From IMG/VR virus record IMGVR_UViG_2872198387_000003: 30,004 nucleotides of DNA. One strand, 5' to 3'. A program made the position numbers and the translations under genes. The notes under the pieces were generated by a model. It was not told where the DNA came from, ran no database searches, and was given only the letters and a program-made list of their open reading frames with translations. This DNA is from a virus. Taxonomy: Duplodnaviria; Heunggongvirae; Uroviricota; Caudoviricetes. Of this stretch, positions 6,937 through 22,358 are shown in pieces (positions within the stretch are counted from its first letter, which is position 1; every line of letters starts with the position of its first letter).

Positions 6937-6992
6937 TTGATTGGTACCTTTGGCGGCATCAGTTTCATTGCTGGCTGATGTCCGCCCTTTTT
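6937..6992 (+). ncRNA. dicF: DicF-like sRNA
   Basis: TTGATTGGTACCTTTGGCGGCATCAGTTTCATTGCTGGCTGATGTCCGCCCTTTTT resembles remembered K-12 DicF (...GTTTGGCGGTATCAGTTTT...GCCGCCCTTTTT). The terminal hairpin GGCGGCATCAG/CTGATGTCCGCC is followed by a U-tract. The prophage early-left context fits. Confidence 0.6.
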
Positions 6993-7198
6993 AAAGTGAA
7001 TTTTGTGATGCGGTGAATGCGGCTGAGCGCACGCGGAACAGTTAAAAAGCGATTAGTTCCCACGTATCGGGTGGTTATGGGTTTCCCTGTATCCGGCGTT
7101 AATTGTTAACTGGTTAACGTCACCTGGAGGCACCAGGCACCGCATCAACAAAGTTCACTTCGGTGATGAAAGGTAAGAGAAAATGTTGAATGTAGCTA

Positions 7199-7227
7199 TT
7201 GAAAACCAGAACGGGTGGAATTATAGT
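7199..7227 (+). promoter_or_regulatory. sigma70-type promoter of the rha leader
   Basis: TTGAAA, 17 nt spacer, TATAGT. Homologous in position to the pR'-like promoter of the second module at 19062-19091. Confidence 0.5.
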
Positions 7228-7287
7228 GCATCTGCACCTCATAAAACGGGGGCCGGGCGTGGAAACCCGAACGTTACTCGAGCGCAT

Positions 7288-7310
7288 AGCCGCGCTGAAG
7301 CGGTTTTTTT
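7288..7310 (+). terminator. weak intrinsic terminator in the rha leader
   Basis: AGCCGC-gctgaa-GCGGTT followed by T7. Same position as the stronger terminator of module B. Confidence 0.45.
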
Positions 7311-7338
7311 ATGCGTAATGCACAGCTCCATTCAAATT

Positions 7339-7450
7339 ATGGTGGGATGTGCAGGGCAGTCGCAAGACTGGCCGGGTTCTCGAGTGACCGGTATTTCCAC
7401 CCCTGTACGTCTCACCACCCTTATGGTCGTGGAAAACCTCGGTGGTGAGT
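7339..7450 (+). ncRNA. c4/CI-type structured antisense RNA candidate, copy A
   Basis: Hairpins are CAGTC-GCAA-GACTG, CCGG-gttCTCGAGTGA-CCGG and CTCACCACC-21 nt-GGTGGTGAG. The CTCGAGTGA loop is complementary to TCACTCGAG (7462-7470), which overlaps the rha SD. A diverged copy at 18843-18945 keeps all helices through compensatory changes. Confidence 0.65.
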
Positions 7451-7479
7451 TAATTAACTTATCACTCGAGGATGCCATC

Positions 7480-8021
7480 ATGGCTACTATCCCTGCCCTT
7501 TCTCACCCTGACGTAACCATCGAAAACGGTCGCGCTGTCACTACGTCTGTTGCGGTTGCAGAGTTCTTCCACAAACGACACGACAATGTGTTACGTGCCA
7601 TCGCAAATACTGAATGCTCACCTGAATTTAACGCCCTCAATTTTGAGGACGTCACCTACACCGACACCAAAGGCGAAAAACGTCCAATGTACCAAATCAC
7701 CAAAAACGGCTTCGTTTTCCTGGTGATGGGCTTCACTGGGAAAAAAGCCGCTGCATTCAAAGAGGCCTACATCGCTGATGTTCGACCGCATGGAGGCAGA
7801 ACTGCACCAGAATAATACCCCGTCCGCTGACAAGATGATTCCGGGTAACGGTCGCACTCTGGTTGTGCACTTCGACGAACACGGCAATATCAGATTCACC
7901 GAAACTGTTCCTGACGGTGCACTGGTCTGTACCCTGGATACTTTCCAGTTTTATCTGGAAAAACAGGGGTGGGCTCTTGTAAACCGGAGCGCAATTAAAA
8001 ATATGACCGTAGAGCAGCTGC
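7480..8021 (+). pseudogene. rha: Rha-family phage regulatory protein, frameshifted and interrupted by IS2
   Basis: ATG 7480 follows GAGGA. Motifs VTTSVAVAEFFHKRHDNVLRAI and GFVFLVMGFTGKKAAAFKEAYIA are present. The frame breaks near 7780 and continues in another frame (FDRMEAELHQ...). IS2 sits 4 codons before the original stop (tail at 9358-9371). Confidence 0.75.
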
Positions 8022-8112
8022 TAGACTGGCCCCCTGAATCTCCAGACAACCAGTATCACTTATTTAAGTGATAGTCTTAATACTAGTTTTTAGACTAGTC
8101 ATTGGAGAACAG

Positions 8113-8478
8113 ATGATTGATGTCTTAGGGCCGGAGAAACGCAGACGGCGTACCACACAGGAAAAGATCGCAATTGTTCAGCAGAGCTTTGAACCGGGGA
8201 TGACGGTCTCCCTCGTTGCCCGGCAACATGGTGTAGCAGCCAGCCAGTTATTTCTCTGGCGTAAGCAATACCAGGAAGGAAGTCTTACTGCTGTGGCCGC
8301 CGGAGAACAGGTTGTTCCTGCCTCTGAACTTGCTGCCGCCATGAAGCAGATTAAAGAACTCCAGCGCCTGCTCGGCAAGAAAACGATGAAAAATGAACTC
8401 CTCAAAGAAGCCGTTGAATATGGACGGGCAAAAAAGTGGATAGCGCACGCGCCCTTATTGCCCGGGGATGGGGAGTAA
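8113..8478 (+). CDS. insC: IS2 OrfA (InsC)
   Basis: 121 aa [26 protein letters not shown]... The ORF-track start at 8068 is an upstream extension. Confidence 0.9.
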
Positions 8479-9341
8479 GCTTAGTCAGCCGTTGTCTCCG
8501 GGTGTCGCGTGCGCAGTTGCACGTCATTCTCAGACGAACCGATGACTGGATGGATGGCCGCCGCAGTCGTCACACTGATGATACGGATGTGCTTCTCCGT
8601 ATACACCATGTTATCGGAGAGCTGCCCACGTATGGTTATCGTCGGGTATGGGCGCTGCTTCGCAGACAGGCAGAACTTGATGGTATGCCTGCGATCAATG
8701 CCAAACGTGTTTACCGGCTCATGCGCCAGAATGCGCTGTTGCTTGAGCGAAAACCTGCTGTACCGCCATCGAAACGGGCACATACAGGCAGAGTGGCCGT
8801 GAAAGAAAGCAATCAGCGATGGTGCTCTGACGGGTTCGAGTTCTGCTGTGATAACGGAGAGAGACTGCGTGTCACGTTCGCGCTGGACTGCTGTGATCGT
8901 GAGGCACTGCACTGGGCGGTGACTACCGGCGGCTTCAACAGTGAAACAGTACAGGACGTCATGCTGGGAGCAGTGGAACGCCGCTTCGGCAACGATCTTC
9001 CGTCGTCTCCAGTGGAGTGGCTGACGGATAATGGTTCATGCTACCGGGCTAATGAAACACGCCAGTTCGCCCGGATGTTGGGACTTGAACCGAAGAACAC
9101 GGCGGTGCGGAGTCCGGAGAGTAACGGAATAGCAGAGAGCTTCGTGAAAACGATAAAGCGTGACTACATCAGTATCATGCCCAAACCAGACGGGTTAACG
9201 GCAGCAAAGAACCTTGCAGAGGCGTTCGAGCATTATAACGAATGGCATCCGCATAGTGCGCTGGGTTATCGCTCGCCACGGGAATATCTGCGGCAGCGGG
9301 CTTGTAATGGGTTAAGTGATAACAGATGTCTGGAAATATAG
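8436..9341 (+). CDS. insD: IS2 OrfB (InsD, DDE transposase)
   Basis: 301-aa ORF overlapping orfA in the -1 frame, with a DDE region ...WCSDGF..., ...LTDNGSCY..., ...SNGIAESF... Confidence 0.9.
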
Positions 9342-13665: not shown

Positions 13666-13932
13666 ATGCGTAAAGCCCGTTTTACTGAGCATCAGATCAT
13701 CGCCGTGATTAAGTCGGTTGAAGCCGGACGAACTGTTAAAGATGTCTGCCGGGAGGCCGGTATCTCTGAAGCCACCTACTACAACTGGAAGTCCAGATAC
13801 GGTGGCATGGAGGCTTCTGATATTAAAAAGATTAAAGAGCTTGAGGACGAGAACCGCCGTCTCAAACAGATGTTTGCCGACCTGAGCCTGGAGAACCGGG
13901 CGCTGAAGGACGTTATCGAAAAAAAGCTTTAA
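13666..13932 (+). CDS. IS3-family OrfA (HTH + leucine zipper)
   Basis: 88 aa MRKARFTEHQIIAVIKSVEAGRTVKDVCREAGISEATYYNWKSRYGG... Confidence 0.85.
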   Translation: MRKARFTEHQIIAVIKSVEAGRTVKDVCREAGISEATYYNWKSRYGGMEASDIKKIKELEDENRRLKQMFADLSLENRALKDVIEKKL

Positions 13933-14777
13933 AACCAGCCTGTAAGCGTGAGCTGGTCACTCATCTGATAACGACATTCGGACTCAGTATCCGTCAGGCC
14001 TGCCGGAGTCTGAACCTGAGCAGAACGGTTTACCATTACCGCCCGGATACCACGCGTGATGAACCCGTTATTGTCGCGTTGCAGGCAGTGGCAGAGCGAT
14101 ACCCACGATACGGTTTTCCGAAACTCTTCCAGGTTCTGCGGCGACAGGGATACCCATGGAATCACAAAAGGATCCACCGTATTTACTGTCTGCTGAAGCT
14201 GAATTTTCGCCGTAAGGGCAAACAACGGTTGCCGGTGCGTAATCCCTCGCCACTGGCCACGTCGGAAGCGCTGAACCAGAGTTGGTCTGTCGATTTTATG
14301 CATGATGCCCTGGTCTGTGGCCGTCGTTTTCGTACGTTCAATGTCGTTGATGACTTTAACCGTGAGGCGTTGTCGATTGAAATCGACCTGAATCTGCCAG
14401 CTCTACGCGTGGTCCGTGTACTCGACAGGATCGCGGCAAACCGTGGCTATCCGGTCAAGCTGCGCATGGATAATGGTCCGGAATTTATCTCCCTGACACT
14501 GGCTGAATGGGCAGAGAAACATGCAGTAAAACTGGAGTTTATCCAGCCGGGTAAGCCGACGCAGAACGCTTTCATTGAGCGCTTTAACCGGACATACCGT
14601 ACAGAAATACTCGATTTTTATCTGTTCAGAACGCTGAATGAAGTGCGGGAAATCACGGAAAAATGGTTGTCAGAATATAACTGTGAACGCCCGCATGAAT
14701 CACTGAACAATATGACGCCAGAGGAATATCGACAACACCATTATTTGGCCGGGATCTCAAAAAATGCCTGGAACTAA
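13926..14777 (+). CDS. IS3-family OrfB (DDE), expressed as an OrfAB fusion by -1 frameshift
   Basis: The frame is open from about 13917: ...KPACKRELVTHLITTFGLSIRQACRSL...WSVDFMHD...RMDNGPEF...NAFIERFN.... The first ATG in this frame is at 14079. Confidence 0.8.
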   Translation, partial: ALKPACKRELVTHLITTFGLSIRQACRSLNLSRTVYHYRPDTTRDEPVIVALQAVAERYPRYGFPKLFQVLRRQGYPWNHKRIHRIYCLLKLNFRRKGKQRLPVRNPSPLATSEALNQSWSVDFMHDALVCGRRFRTFNVVDDFNREALSIEIDLNLPALRVVRVLDRIAANRGYPVKLRMDNGPEFISLTLAEWAEKHAVKLEFIQPGKPTQNAFIERFNRTYRTEILDFYLFRTLNEVREITEKWLSEYNCERPHESLNNMTPEEYRQHHYLAGISKNAWN

Positions 14778-16471: not shown

Positions 16472-16546
<75 letters not shown>

Positions 16547-16549
16547 ATA

Positions 16550-16625
<76 letters not shown>

Positions 16626-16627
16626 GC

Positions 16628-16704
16628 TGGCCCACCACCGAGGACTCGAACCTCGCACCGTCAACTTAGAAGGTTGATGCTCTATCCGGATGAGCTAGTG
16701 GTGG
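16628..16704 (-). tRNA. tRNA-Arg (anticodon UCU)
   Basis: CCACCACTAGCTCATCCGGATAGAGCATCAACCTTCTAAGTTGACGGTGCGAGGTTCGAGTCCTCGGTGGTGGGCCA. All stems are perfect. The first base pair is an unusual C1-G72. Confidence 0.85.
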
Positions 16705-16705
16705 T

Positions 16706-16782
16706 TGGTGGCCCTTGCTGGACTTGAACCAGCGACCTGGCGATTATGAGTCGCTCGCTCTGACCAACTGAGCTAAAGGGCC
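16706..16782 (-). tRNA. tRNA-Ile2-like (anticodon CAU, ileX/ileZ type)
   Basis: GGCCCTTTAGCTCAGTTGGTCAGAGCGAGCGACTCATAATCGCCAGGTCGCTGGTTCAAGTCCAGCAAGGGCCACCA. The T-arm and anticodon arm closely resemble remembered ileX rather than the elongator Met tRNA. Confidence 0.85.
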
Positions 16783-16894: not shown

Positions 16895-17543
16895 CTTTCA
16901 AGTGTCCATGTCTGCTATTCGCCTCGCGATACAGCTTTGCGAAGCTTACCGGAATTGAAGCAGTTTATGTGCAAAAATGCAAGAACTTTTTTAAAGCTGC
17001 ATCAACCTTTCCACCAGTTTATCTCTGCGAACAACAAACCAACCATTGGCTCTCGCCAGTTCCAGCCATGACTCAAGGGAAATAACAATATCATCATCCC
17101 GTAACTGAATTGTGGAAACAGTGACACCGCCTCTCTGATAACAGAGAACTCGCGTGTCGTAACTTTTCTGGCATGAAACTGGCGTTGACGGATCCCTTTG
17201 ACTGAAATAGCAGTCTTCCAGTTTTTCGAACACATCCCACGCCTGATCGGTTTCGAGCATTTTGCCGTGGCGTGCTGCGCCTCGTTCTGTCCAGAGGATG
17301 AGGGAGCGGGCTTTGGGTGAAACTGGATTTTGTGAGTAGTTTAAAGCGACCCGCAATTCTTTAAGGTCATTACCAACAACTTTGAAAAAGTGTTTCCCTT
17401 CAACGAAGCGTACTTTGTTCTCATGATGATTCTGGCGAATACGCACCGGCTCAGTGCCGTAAAGCTGCGCCAAAAGTTCGGTGGTAATAACAGGAATCTG
17501 TGAGGTGTACTGGCAATAGCGGACACTACCATTTGTTCTTTTT

Positions 17544-18362
17544 TTAAGCAGCCATCTGATGATATTTTTCCCTGAAGGCTGCCGGGGAGATATTCCCCAG
17601 ACGAGAGTGACGACGCTGACGATTGTAGAAAATCTCAATGTATTCCCGTATTACTGAGATGGCTTCATCCCGGTTATTAAAACGATAGTGGCTCAGGCTC
17701 TCATTTTTCAGCGTTCCCCAGAAGCTTTCCATCGGAGCGTTGTCGTAACAGTTACCTTTACGCGACATTGATGTTTTCAGACCAGACTGCTCCTGTATGA
17801 CCCGGTAATCGTATGCGCAGTACTGTGAACCTCGATCAGAGTGGTGGATTAGCCCGGCAGGTGGGCGCTGGCTCCTGAGCGCCATAAACAGGGCTTTACC
17901 TGTCAGCTCTTTTGTCATGCGCTCTCCCATGGCGTAGCCGACAATTTCACACGTATAAACATCTTTGATGCCAGCGAGGTACAACCATCCCTCCTGTGTG
18001 GCAACATACGTCAGGTCCGCCACCCAGACCTGATTTGGTGCTGTAGGAGCGAACGTCTGGTTCAGCAGATTTGGCGCAACTGGCAGATTGTGGTTCGGGT
18101 TCGTAGTCGCTCTGAACTTGCGTTTCTGCTTACAGCGTAGCCTTAGCTCCTTACGAAGACGTGCCAGTCGGTCACGACCAACGATGATGCCATTCTCTGC
18201 CAGCTCCGTCTGGAGCCGCCGGGTTCCATATGTTTCGCGAGTGCGGATATGTGCCACCTTAATCTCCAGTTTTAGCCGCTCATCACTTTGTTTTCTGTCT
18301 GAGGGTTCATGCTGTACCCAGTTGTAATAACCGCTCCTGGATACACCAAATACCTGACACAT
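17544..18362 (-). CDS. IS600 OrfB
   Basis: Identical 272-aa ORF. Confidence 0.9.
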   Translation of the reverse strand: MCQVFGVSRSGYYNWVQHEPSDRKQSDERLKLEIKVAHIRTRETYGTRRLQTELAENGIIVGRDRLARLRKELRLRCKQKRKFRATTNPNHNLPVAPNLLNQTFAPTAPNQVWVADLTYVATQEGWLYLAGIKDVYTCEIVGYAMGERMTKELTGKALFMALRSQRPPAGLIHHSDRGSQYCAYDYRVIQEQSGLKTSMSRKGNCYDNAPMESFWGTLKNESLSHYRFNNRDEAISVIREYIEIFYNRQRRHSRLGNISPAAFREKYHQMAA

Positions 18363-18397
18363 CGCTTCAATGGGAAATTGTTGTCGCCATTGTTCGA

Positions 18398-18700
18398 TTA
18401 ACGCGTATTTTTCAGCGACTCCTGTGCAAAATACGCTGTTGCTTTTTTTAATATATCTCGCTCAAGGCGAGCTTCATTTAACGCCTTACGCAGTTGCAGA
18501 ATTTCAGATTCCAGTTCAGCCACCGTGCGGGAACCAGGAGTACCGAGCCCTTTTCTGGCGGCGGTAACCCATTGTCCTAAAGTGCCTTCAGGAAGAGATA
18601 ATCGGGAAGCGCCTTCACTGATCGAAAGTTGATTTTCAAGAACCGTTCTGACAGCTTCGGCTTTGAACTCTTTAGAGTAACGTTGGGTTTTTCTGCTCAT
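18398..18700 (-). CDS. IS600 OrfA
   Basis: Identical 100-aa ORF. Confidence 0.9.
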   Translation of the reverse strand: MSRKTQRYSKEFKAEAVRTVLENQLSISEGASRLSLPEGTLGQWVTAARKGLGTPGSRTVAELESEILQLRKALNEARLERDILKKATAYFAQESLKNTR

Positions 18701-18842
18701 TATTAGCTCCTTCTGATGCCATTCTATTTCAGGAAGGAGTGTCCGTTAAACTCAGGCTACCTCACTGGTTATGGGTGATCGGGGAGAGAGTTTCAACAGA
18801 GATTTGAGTGGTCATAACGATAACTCCGTACATTTGGAAATT

Positions 18843-18945
18843 ATCGCCACCGACGACGCCAATCGAACTGGTGGCGAACTGTGCAGGGTTGGCGTAACCG
18901 GGTACGGAAACCGGCGAGCCTTTCGGCTCCCCCACACAGCCCGCC
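18843..18945 (-). ncRNA. c4/CI-type structured antisense RNA candidate, copy B
   Basis: Minus-strand hairpins are GAGCC-GAAA-GGCTC, CCGG-tTTCCGTAC-CCGG and TCGCCACC-18 nt-GGTGGCGA. The TCCGTAC loop is complementary to GTACGGA (18825-18831), which overlaps the ant SD GGAG. This copy aligns with copy A at 7339-7450. Confidence 0.65.
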
Positions 18946-18978
18946 ATAAATCGCGAATGTGACTGTGCAAACGATATG

Positions 18979-19000
18979 AAAAAAGACGCGGGCGCGTCTC
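18979..19000 (-). terminator. tR'-like intrinsic terminator of the late leader
   Basis: The minus strand reads AGACGC-gccc-GCGTCT followed by T6, about 65 nt downstream of the predicted pR' start. Confidence 0.8.
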
Positions 19001-19061
19001 ATATCGCTCCGTAAACATCCGGGACGCCAATCCCGACGCCAGATTTTGCTGGCGCGTGAGG

Positions 19062-19091
19062 AATATAGCCCCGGATAACAGATTGAGTCAA
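19062..19091 (-). promoter_or_regulatory. pR'-like late promoter
   Basis: The minus strand reads TTGACT, 18 nt spacer, TATATT. The -35 element contains the Q stop codon TGA, the usual lambdoid position for pR'/qut. Confidence 0.65.
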
Positions 19092-19642
19092 CAAACGGTT
19101 TTTAGATCCCCGGAAGAGAATGCATCACGCATCGGTAGATAGAGCATATATTCAGCAAGATTTAGCCATACATCTACCCGACTGCAGCACGTCCGGAAAC
19201 ACCACTCAGGGTGTGCGTCATTCAGCAATTCAGCCATTTTACGCTTAGTCATCCCCCGCCCTTCATACCGTTGCCGGAGGACACTAATCAATCCAGGATG
19301 CTCTGCCAGCACCTCACTTATGACTCTATCAATACATAACGCCTCTGCATCAGTACAATGCGCCAGCCAGGTCTTTTGCTTGCCATTGATCATCTCTCGC
19401 AAAAACGCTTCCAGCTCAGGTTTCTCTATTCCCGCTTTTTTCATCCTGCGCAGGGCTTCATTGACGGCTGTTTTCGTCAATTTTTTGGATGCCAGCAACT
19501 GGTTAAACATATTTCCCGTCTTACCGCCGCCAATATACGACCAGCGCCCCCACATGCGCAGTTTTCCCTGAATCCAGACACTTTCCAGCGTGGTGAGACG
19601 AAGGTGTTCCCCGCTTTTGCCTGTATTTGTTGGGTAAATCAT
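19088..19642 (-). CDS. late-gene antiterminator Q (Phage_antitermQ type)
   Basis: 184 aa from MIYPTNTGKSGEHLRLTTLESVWIQGKLRMWGRWSYIGGGKTGNMFNQLL.... The start overlaps the upstream stop (ATGA). The ORF-track start at 19762 overlaps the preceding gene and was rejected. Confidence 0.8.
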   Translation of the reverse strand: MIYPTNTGKSGEHLRLTTLESVWIQGKLRMWGRWSYIGGGKTGNMFNQLLASKKLTKTAVNEALRRMKKAGIEKPELEAFLREMINGKQKTWLAHCTDAEALCIDRVISEVLAEHPGLISVLRQRYEGRGMTKRKMAELLNDAHPEWCFRTCCSRVDVWLNLAEYMLYLPMRDAFSSGDLKTVC

Positions 19643-19929
19643 AAATAACCTTCCTTTCTCCAGATTTCTTGTGTGCGAAAAACACCTTCTGCATGCATCA
19701 GGCGTAATTCTTCTTTGGTGTAATCGCTGGTTTTTACCCGCCCGTCGATTAAATCGTGGCATGAGCTACAGGCAATCGCTGCCTGCATATCGTGTGGTTT
19801 TGTCGCTGTTCCGCACGTCCCCGCCAGCCTGTAATGCGCCAGCACAGAAGTTTCGGGATTGTGATTGCAGTAGCCAGGAATTCTGACGGTGCACATCTGC
19901 CCCCGCGCCGCTTTACGTAAATCCACCAT
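19639..19929 (-). CDS. YbcO-like nin-region protein (DUF1364)
   Basis: 96 aa MVDLRKAARGQMCTVRIPGYCNHNPETSVLAHYRLAGTCGTATKPHD...ACSSCHDLIDGR resembles remembered DLP12 YbcO. Confidence 0.7.
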   Translation of the reverse strand: MVDLRKAARGQMCTVRIPGYCNHNPETSVLAHYRLAGTCGTATKPHDMQAAIACSSCHDLIDGRVKTSDYTKEELRLMHAEGVFRTQEIWRKEGYL

Positions 19930-21864: not shown

Positions 21865-22020
21865 TTACTCCTCAGGTTCGTAAGCTGTGAAGACAGCGAC
21901 CTCCGTCTGGCCGGTTCGGATTCGTACCTCGCAGAGGTCTTTCCTCGTTACCAGTGCCGTCACTATGACGGTTAAACAGATGACGATCAGGGCGATTAAC
22001 ATCGCCTTTTGCTGCTTCAT
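21865..22020 (-). CDS. hok: Hok/Gef-family type I toxin
   Basis: 51 aa MKQQKAMLIALIVICLTVIVTALVTRKDLCEVRIRTGQTEVAVFTAYEPEE (HokD/RelF-like). An in-frame upstream ATG at 22077 gives a 70-aa Mok-like form, as in mokC/hokC. Confidence 0.9.
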   Translation of the reverse strand: MKQQKAMLIALIVICLTVIVTALVTRKDLCEVRIRTGQTEVAVFTAYEPEE

Positions 22021-22068
22021 AGCCTGCTTCTCCTTGCCTTTCGGCACGTAAGAGGCTAACCTACATTT

Positions 22069-22143
22069 GTGAGACATAGATTGGGCCTCAGATTAATGTT
22101 AAGCGTCTTGCAGGACGCGTAATGTTAACTGGGGCTTTTCTCT
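22069..22143 (+). ncRNA. sok: Sok-like antisense RNA
   Basis: Plus-strand promoter TTGCCT, 17 nt spacer, TAACCT (22034-22062). The transcript GTGAGACATAGATTGGGCC...ACTGGGGCTTTTCTCTG is antisense to the mok start region and parallels remembered R1 Sok (..GACATAGGG...ACGGGGCTATCTTCTTTCTG). Confidence 0.6.
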
Positions 22144-22358
22144 GTCTGCCTTACAGTGGCATGCCCGAGGCAGACAGCCTCAAGCACCCGCAGCAATCTT
22201 ACCGATACCGATAAGAAAACGCTATTTTTTATTGCCAGCACCTTCTATCCAGGCTAATTTATCTGCGTCAGAACGGCGCAATGCGCTCGCCTGAGATACG
22301 TTTACTTGCCATGGTAACAACAGGTAACGGCAATTGCTGTTTCTGTTTTGTTTCCTTC

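Follow-up and report, generated by a model that had tools for sequence, protein, structure and literature searches.

The stretch of viral DNA analysed here (30,004 nucleotides; Caudoviricetes; IMG/VR record IMGVR_UViG_2872198387_000003; "the window" denotes this whole stretch) carries two copies of a compact RNA regulatory module, copy A on the plus strand in front of a rha gene and copy B on the minus strand in front of an ORF6N-domain gene. Each copy is very probably an IsrK–C4 module, the form that the c4 antisense system of phages P1 and P7 takes in lambdoid prophages. When the whole window was scanned against Rfam at curated thresholds, the C4 antisense RNA model (RF01695, threshold 45) scored 76.7 bits in copy A and 77.6 bits in copy B, with both matches spanning model positions 1–87 of 87. 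Each copy carries all six elements of the system: the sites a1 and b1 in the leader, the antisense elements b' and a' in the C4 RNA, and the sites a2 and b2 downstream, with b2 lying over the ribosome-binding site of the next gene in both copies, as is characteristic of the C4 family. A reading of the sequence made without search tools (the original prediction) had ascribed to copy A the logic of P1/P7 c4 and had proposed a search with the Rfam C4 covariance model as a check; both copies score about 30 bits above the gathering threshold of this model, which was built from P1/P7 c4, and that reading correctly identified a genuine RNA regulatory module. The RNA truly belongs to the c4 family and is a catalogued element, and there is little new in it. 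The features of copy A are as follows.

7199-7204 and 7222-7227, plus strand: promoter-like site, TTGAAA and TATAGT separated by 17 nt (consensus scan, 10/12 matches)
7234-7310, plus strand: IsrK-type leader RNA (RF01394, 59.6 bits, threshold 50)
7259-7265, plus strand: a1, GTGGAAA, in the loop of leader hairpin 2
7274-7282, plus strand: b1, TTACTCGAG, leader site complementary to the b' loop
7288-7305, plus strand: stem of a terminator-like hairpin, followed by a T-run (terminator scan)
7335-7422, plus strand: C4 antisense RNA, 88 nt
7340-7356 with 7401-7417, plus strand: C4 closing stem, 17 bp
7357-7370, plus strand: C4 hairpin P2, with a GCAA loop
7371-7392, plus strand: C4 hairpin P3, presenting the b' loop
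7376-7387, plus strand: b' loop, GTTCTCGAGTGA, 12 nt, including CTCGAGTGA
7394-7400, plus strand: a', TTTCCAC, single-stranded junction
7412-7448, plus strand: hairpin TCACCACC/GGTGGTGA (−17.3 kcal/mol, z = −3.1)
7429-7435, plus strand: a2, GTGGAAA, in the loop of the preceding hairpin
7462-7470, plus strand: b2, TCACTCGAG (7462-7473 with the following GAT), overlapping the Shine-Dalgarno sequence GAGGA at 7468-7472
7480-8023, plus strand: controlled gene, a Rha-family pseudogene (PF09669, E = 1.8e-28)

The promoter-like site of copy A is the sole plus-strand candidate of the consensus scan in 7000-7600, with a predicted transcript start at about 7234. The leader consists of two hairpins and a terminator directly 5' of C4, the arrangement expected of IsrK. 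Folded alone, it is not unusually stable (z = −0.08); its support is the model score together with covariation. Both C4 RNAs fold stably (−44.0 kcal/mol, z = −5.0 in copy A; −45.9 kcal/mol, z = −4.6 in copy B), and their minimum-energy folds reproduce the family structure of a long closing stem, a tetraloop hairpin and a hairpin with a 9–12 nt loop. The conserved acceptor-like stem and CCACC tail of the family are visible as well, CCACC being the 3' tail of the copy A RNA. The b2 site of copy A forms 9 Watson-Crick pairs with the b' loop, or 12 pairs when two G·U pairs are included, and the Shine-Dalgarno/b2 region lies 9 nt 5' of the rha ATG at 7480. The hairpin at 7412-7448 takes as its 5' strand the segment that also forms the 3' side of the C4 closing stem, and the two folds are mutually exclusive as a result. 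A switch between precursor and processed RNA, in which the closing stem is exchanged for the a2 hairpin, is a possibility at 7412-7448 on the plus strand and at 18877-18844 on the minus strand.

Every motif that the original prediction had named in copy A (the promoter with its 17-nt spacer, TTACTCGAG in the leader and TCACTCGAG over GAGGA) was found where it had been placed. What had been called a weak terminator is the IsrK terminator, hairpin and T-run included, and the 12-nt loop of the middle hairpin does contain the antisense CTCGAGTGA with its 9 Watson-Crick pairs to b2. The structured RNA of about 110 nt folds as described but is in fact the 88-nt C4 RNA plus the separate hairpin at 7412-7448. 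The pairing between loop and leader, given as 7 nt, exists and reaches 9 nt when one G·U pair is counted. The b elements of the antisense layout had been read correctly, while the second antisense set, a1/a'/a2, had been overlooked. A diverged second copy had also been recognised, and it aligns to copy A end to end with 75% column identity; it does so as the reverse complement, and its placement needs correcting to the minus strand, where the following features were found.

19062-19091, minus strand: promoter-like site, TTGACT and TATATT separated by 18 nt (consensus scan)
19068-19016, minus strand: c4-a1b1 motif (RF03163, 52.2 bits, threshold 46.7)
18979-19055, minus strand: IsrK leader RNA (RF01394, 75.6 bits, threshold 50)
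19030-19024, minus strand: a1, TTGGCGT
19013-19008, minus strand: b1, TACGGA
19000-18983, minus strand: terminator (terminator scan)
18867-18951, minus strand: C4 antisense RNA
18910-18902, minus strand: b' loop, TTTCCGTAC
18895-18889, minus strand: a', ACGCCAA
18877-18844, minus strand: hairpin TCGCCACC/GGTGGCGA, within the target region 18825-18877
18862-18856, minus strand: a2, TTGGCGT, in the loop of the preceding hairpin
18832-18826, minus strand: b2, GTACGGA, overlapping the Shine-Dalgarno sequence GGAG at 18828-18825
16994-18815, minus strand: controlled gene, ORF6N-domain and anti-repressor-like (PF10543)

Comparison of the two copies bears out the compensatory changes that had been proposed: the stem CAGTC/GACTG becomes GAGCC/GGCTC, with GCAA and GAAA loops; the stem TCACCACC/GGTGGTGA becomes TCGCCACC/GGTGGCGA; and the antisense loop and both of its targets have changed together, to TCCGTAC, GTACGGA and TACGGA. 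The closing stem and the a2 hairpin each carry a compensating change between the copies, an A-to-G difference being matched in both partners. The b2 site of copy B stands 9 nt 5' of the ATG at 18815 (start codon 18815-18813, minus strand).

The analysis establishes that the RNAs belong to the family, that they adopt its structures and that their complementary elements covary across it. An alignment of relatives, such as the original prediction had called for, was part of this. A degenerate C4-core pattern retrieved 120 viral contigs, with 107 hits in which the 5' half of C4 was clean; the alignment comprised 101 distinct sequences. Across these relatives the C4 stems are 99.6–100% paired overall, with compensatory changes: in the closing stem 99.9% of cells are paired and 9 of the 17 pairs changed on both sides, and in P2 99.6% are paired and all five pairs changed on both sides. 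Pairing between leader and C4 covaries strongly as well, with 99.1% of cells paired in a1:a' (6 of the 7 pairs changed on both sides) and 86.6% in b1:b' (9/9), and the helix of the hairpin that presents a2 is 95.8% paired with three such pairs. None of 500 column shuffles matched the observed covariation values, and pairing fell to 37–46% in a control in which the partners were slid by 1–3 columns. The poor pairing of the IsrK terminator helix (46.7%) was set aside as the misalignment of a stem of variable length; scans of individual sequences show the terminator in both copies.

The downstream pairings a2:a' and b2:b' were examined without an alignment. Column-based counting of these pairs, at 49–51% paired, was dropped because MAFFT had misplaced the short sites; instead, an exact complement of at least 7 nt was sought within 130 nt downstream at 116 distinct loci, with loops swapped between loci as controls. 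A complement to a' was found at 93% of the loci, against 5% with the antisense from another locus, and a complement to b' at 78%, against 3% with swapped loops. Because the controls are so much lower, the antisense pattern is far beyond chance. In nearly all loci b2 ends 9–12 nt 5' of the start codon. Variants of a' and b' are combined in many ways from locus to locus, as if they had been exchanged independently. Some contigs carry two or three complete modules head to tail, about 656 nt apart, each made of IsrK, C4 and a small rha gene (about 120 aa) and each with its own a and b code: L058 (9640-11212), and also L007 (6532-7448), L027 (4571-5490) and L029.

From this architecture we infer transcription, processing, translational repression and a decoy role for the leader. 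A constitutive promoter would give rise to a short, terminated IsrK-type leader of about 77 nt, with some transcripts passing the terminator. From the read-through transcript a tRNA-like C4 RNA of about 85–88 nt, ending in the CCACC tail, would be excised, as is done by RNase P in P1, and its b' loop and a' junction would bind a2 and b2, either on the same transcript or on sister copies. Since b' and a' covary with sites on and beside the Shine-Dalgarno sequence, C4 would be expected to block translation; with b2 covering that sequence, the anti-repressor-type gene, Rha in copy A and an ORF6N/AnrP-like protein in copy B, would be kept untranslated. The leader holds a second set of a and b sites and would therefore compete for C4 through a1 and b1, so that the ratio of leader to C4 would set expression of the gene. 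In predicted duplexes, the C4 RNA of copy A binds its own downstream target at −33.4 kcal/mol and that of the other copy at −19.0 kcal/mol, the corresponding values for the C4 RNA of copy B being −26.1 and −18.5 kcal/mol. The stronger duplexes with their own targets suggest that the copies should not cross-talk, and the a and b sequences are unrelated between them, so that independent action is expected, as between P1 and P7.

A close precedent is c4 of P1 and P7, which controls icd-ant as given in the RF01695 entry and in the citation of Citron and Schuster (1990) by PMC2864571. The modules in the window belong to the same covariance-model family and share the a1 b1 / b' a' / a2 b2 layout, the position of b2 on a ribosome-binding site and the setting of specificity by a few loop bases. 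They differ in that they reside in lambdoid prophages and not in P1, in that the site to be blocked lies on the Rha or ORF6N gene itself rather than on a small upstream icd, and in that the IsrK leader has its own terminator and would accumulate as a small RNA. "Immunity", the word used in the original prediction, is a label taken over from P1 and would best be softened here. IsrK and C4 have been described as homologues of P4 seqA and CI and as an "IsrK-C4 immunity system" of some lambdoid prophages (Barquist et al. 2013, PMC3632133), and in the APSE phages of Hamiltonella (PMC7313666; LR794149.1) isrK and c4, with a' and b' annotated, likewise precede a gene, there in another host clade and with another downstream domain, Bro-N. 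A motif paper has catalogued c4 and c4-a1b1 for Proteobacteria and phages, and a 2025 review handles IsrK/orf45 and the c4 antisense family separately (PMC12197685).

The experimentally studied counterpart of copy B is the antQ-isrK-orf45-anrP locus of the Salmonella prophage Gifsy-1 (NC_010392), in which isrK (34316-34240) and C4 (34214-34131) lie between the Q gene and an anti-repressor-like gene, and which has been described as isrK, a 45-codon "orf45" and anrP (PMC4825925). When +1 is set at 34316, the published positions A107 and U120/G121 coincide with the two AUGs at the C4 5' end, which places orf45 over C4, a2 and b2. A 45-aa open reading frame (ORF) at 7311-7448 of copy A was rejected as a counterpart, as the mapped orf45 starts at the AUG at the C4 5' end; the frame at 7311 is coincidental. 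Gifsy-1 and copy B share the order Q-type antiterminator, promoter, IsrK, C4 (within orf45 in Gifsy-1) and an ORF6N-type gene starting MTTQISVETLSP; their a1, a' and a2 are identical (TTGGCGT/ACGCCAA), whereas the b loop is TCGGTGAT in Gifsy-1 and TTTCCGTAC in copy B. The promoter-like site of copy B has almost the same sequence as the isrK promoter region mapped in Gifsy-1, where that promoter is active (PMC4825925). The nucleotide sequence of orf45 is conserved and its amino-acid sequence is not, a stable processed RNA from the orf45/C4 region, STnc1160, depends on the isrK promoter, and IsrK resembles P4 seqA (PMC4825925). The compensatory pairs G28/C162 and G31/C159 of that study map to a1 (TTGGCGT) and a' (ACGCCAA), which gives the a1:a' pairing experimental support in a close relative. 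Copy A departs from Gifsy-1 in its place, an early-left operon after a DicF-like RNA and in front of rha.

Several observations weigh against repression by C4 with the leader as decoy. Both target genes in this window are broken, so that nothing may be regulated here, and the leader of copy A reaches only 18.3 bits on the c4-a1b1 model (RF03163), against 52.2 bits for copy B. In the Gifsy-1 study (PMC4825925, Table 1D and Discussion), translation of anrP rose in cis when a1 was mutated, and constitutive STnc1160 failed to counteract IsrK. A plain trans-acting repressor with a decoy predicts neither Gifsy-1 result, and both fit the published model of that locus, a cis structural switch with translational coupling in which C4 is not a trans-acting repressor: pairing between leader and C4 inactivates the read-through RNA, and free IsrK small RNA opens the fold, whereupon ribosomes translate an ORF from the AUG at the C4 5' end up to the gene and switch on the anti-repressor. 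Reporter, native-gel and toeprint-type data support this model (PMC4825925). Of 72 distinct loci, 50 keep the frame from the C4 AUGG open as far as the gene start, compared with 27 and 9 for the other two frames; it is in frame with the gene in both window copies (7339-7482; 18947-18813, minus strand) and fused to rha in copy A, whereas the corresponding ORF of Gifsy-1 terminates at the start codon of anrP. The excess of open frames may, however, reflect fixed C4 sequence and shared ancestry, the frame has an early stop in 22 of the 72 loci, and the ORF shows no conservation at the amino-acid level (PMC4825925). Moreover, the model assigns no role to the pairing of b' with b2, which covary precisely where b2 covers the Shine-Dalgarno sequence, and the RNA is a genuine c4 RNA, of a family in which the P1 representative works in trans. 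We consider the cis switch with translational coupling rather unlikely, yet it is a live alternative, or complement, to the antisense block.

A single mechanism may account for both literatures, with orf45 being the C4 gene, IsrK the a1/b1 decoy, and the "activation" of anrP a titration of C4 off a2 and b2. The location of G28/C162 and G31/C159 within a1:a' and the covariation of b' with the Shine-Dalgarno sequence are consistent with such titration; some published results do not fit it simply, and we offer it tentatively, as a possibility on the doubtful side.

Control at the level of transcription would be a further departure from antisense block of translation. In P4 CI (seqA/seqB/seqC) and N15 CA RNA, a processed small RNA likewise pairs with repeats on either side, with the outcome there of premature termination, controlling replication in P4 and the antA operon in N15. 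If the modules of the window worked in this manner, C4 pairing would cause premature termination rather than a ribosome block. In structure, IsrK and C4 are homologous to P4 seqA and CI (PMC3632133; PMC4825925), and a terminator stands directly 3' of b1 in both copies. In P1, blocked icd translation gives polarity on ant, which may also be counted in favour of such a mechanism. The downstream site, however, appears here to be the Shine-Dalgarno sequence, b2 occupies that sequence in nearly every locus, which points to translation, and the terminator scans of both copies returned no terminator-like site after a2/b2. The Gifsy-1 operon, too, is transcribed yet untranslated (PMC4825925, Table 1A). 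The context of both copies is lambdoid and not that of a P4-type satellite, which does not match the P4 CI/seqA–seqB–seqC system. Control by termination is thus improbable, and translational block by C4 is the mechanism we prefer for the modules.

The genes behind b2, whose identities were set by Pfam domains, have in common domains that suggest a controlled gene of the anti-repressor type. Rha accounts for 29 of 94 and is the largest group, followed by ORF6N with P22_AR_C, the C-terminal domain of the P22 anti-repressor (14); Bro-N, KilA-N, P22_AR_N, the "derepression" family and several small unknown proteins are also found. The attachment to a Rha-type gene pointed out in the original prediction is therefore real and at the same time the commonest arrangement in the sample, usual rather than new. 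In the window both controlled genes are inactivated. The rha gene of copy A carries a frameshift near 7775 and ends in IS2 sequence in place of its final codons (ORFs of IS2 at 8068-9341); in tblastn an intact 184-aa homologue splits between frame 1 (7480-7779) and frame 2 (7739-8023). The gene of copy B begins MTTQISVETLSPITHNQ, and its first 12 residues, MTTQISVETLSP, match Gifsy-1 AnrP; it is broken after codon 17 by an IS600-like insertion at about 17504-18764, leaving amino acids 1–17 at 18815-18765 and 16–185 at 17503-16994 (tblastn).

The surroundings of the two copies are those of lambdoid prophages. Copy B is preceded by DUF1367, YbcO and a Q-type antiterminator gene (19088-19762, minus strand), directly after which its promoter-like site lies, and is followed by four tRNA genes; this places it in the late-promoter region of such a prophage. 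Copy A lies in an early-left operon behind the DicF-like RNA, and an E. coli genome with a 100% identical copy A has the order repressor, ydfA, ydfB, ydfC', module, rha, ydaE, recE, gam. The DicF-like RNA 5' of copy A (6939-6987, plus strand) scores 38.8 bits, below the threshold of 48, and an STnc100-like stretch (6999-7152, plus strand) 36.5 bits, below the threshold of 47; a full-scoring DicF occupies the equivalent place in homologous viral contigs. Curated matches elsewhere in the window are to CssrB (151.6 bits), isrN (156 bits), sok/CssrC (118.1 bits) and the four tRNA genes 3' of the copy B gene, at 2631-2813, 13931-14073, 22015-22189 and 16475-16782, all on the minus strand, and IS1-, IS2- and IS600-type ORFs occur throughout. 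These RNA matches and insertion-sequence ORFs suggest a Shigella-like chromosome with decayed prophages.

With both controlled genes inactivated, copies A and B are most likely relics in defective prophages. That they are also inert, with no present function in two decayed prophages of a genome rich in insertion sequences, we put at somewhat under an even chance. The frameshifted and IS2-truncated rha, the ORF6N gene split by IS600 and the insertion-sequence ORFs across the window all favour inertness. The promoters, terminators and both RNAs are intact, however, and score as full-length family members, and the annotated Rha coding sequence (CDS) behind the identical E. coli copy carries no pseudogene flag; in E. 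coli FDAARGOS_943 the annotation gives an intact Rha CDS. The RNAs could, moreover, still act on incoming phages with matching a and b sequences.

Among 5,426 complete E. coli genomes, 774 carry a megablast relative of copy A. A genome-wide pattern scan, which speaks to spread only and not to frequency, reached further: among the matches listed, 93 of 127 hits were rejected as chance occurrences in high-GC genomes, and the 34 that formed at least 15 of the 17 closing-stem pairs are from Pseudomonas, Serratia, Erwinia, Kluyvera, Xenorhabdus, Aeromonas, Salinisphaera and Janthinobacterium. The nearest phage-database match to copy B, PP818812.1 (15544-15843, 93.3% over 299 nt), is labelled as a phage of Actinobacillus pleuropneumoniae, a surprising host for an enterobacterial prophage sequence. 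In RefSeq, the first 99 or so codons of a 283-aa "Rha family phage regulatory protein" are promoter, IsrK leader and C4 RNA (L122:3985-4836, from E. coli NZ_CP065615.1; window 7183-7815; L010:4995-5846). The true Rha start is the ATG behind b2, and the RNA gene is not annotated at this CDS.

The module is thus catalogued and partly characterised, and in this window it guards two dead genes. Since the IsrK/orf45 system and the c4 family are the same module, a simple re-test of the Gifsy-1 mechanism suggests itself. If titration of C4 by the leader is indeed how the module works, the ratio of leader to read-through RNA set at the IsrK terminator would be a general anti-repressor switch in hundreds of enterobacterial prophages, and modules arrayed in series, each with its own a and b code, would act as several independent switches.

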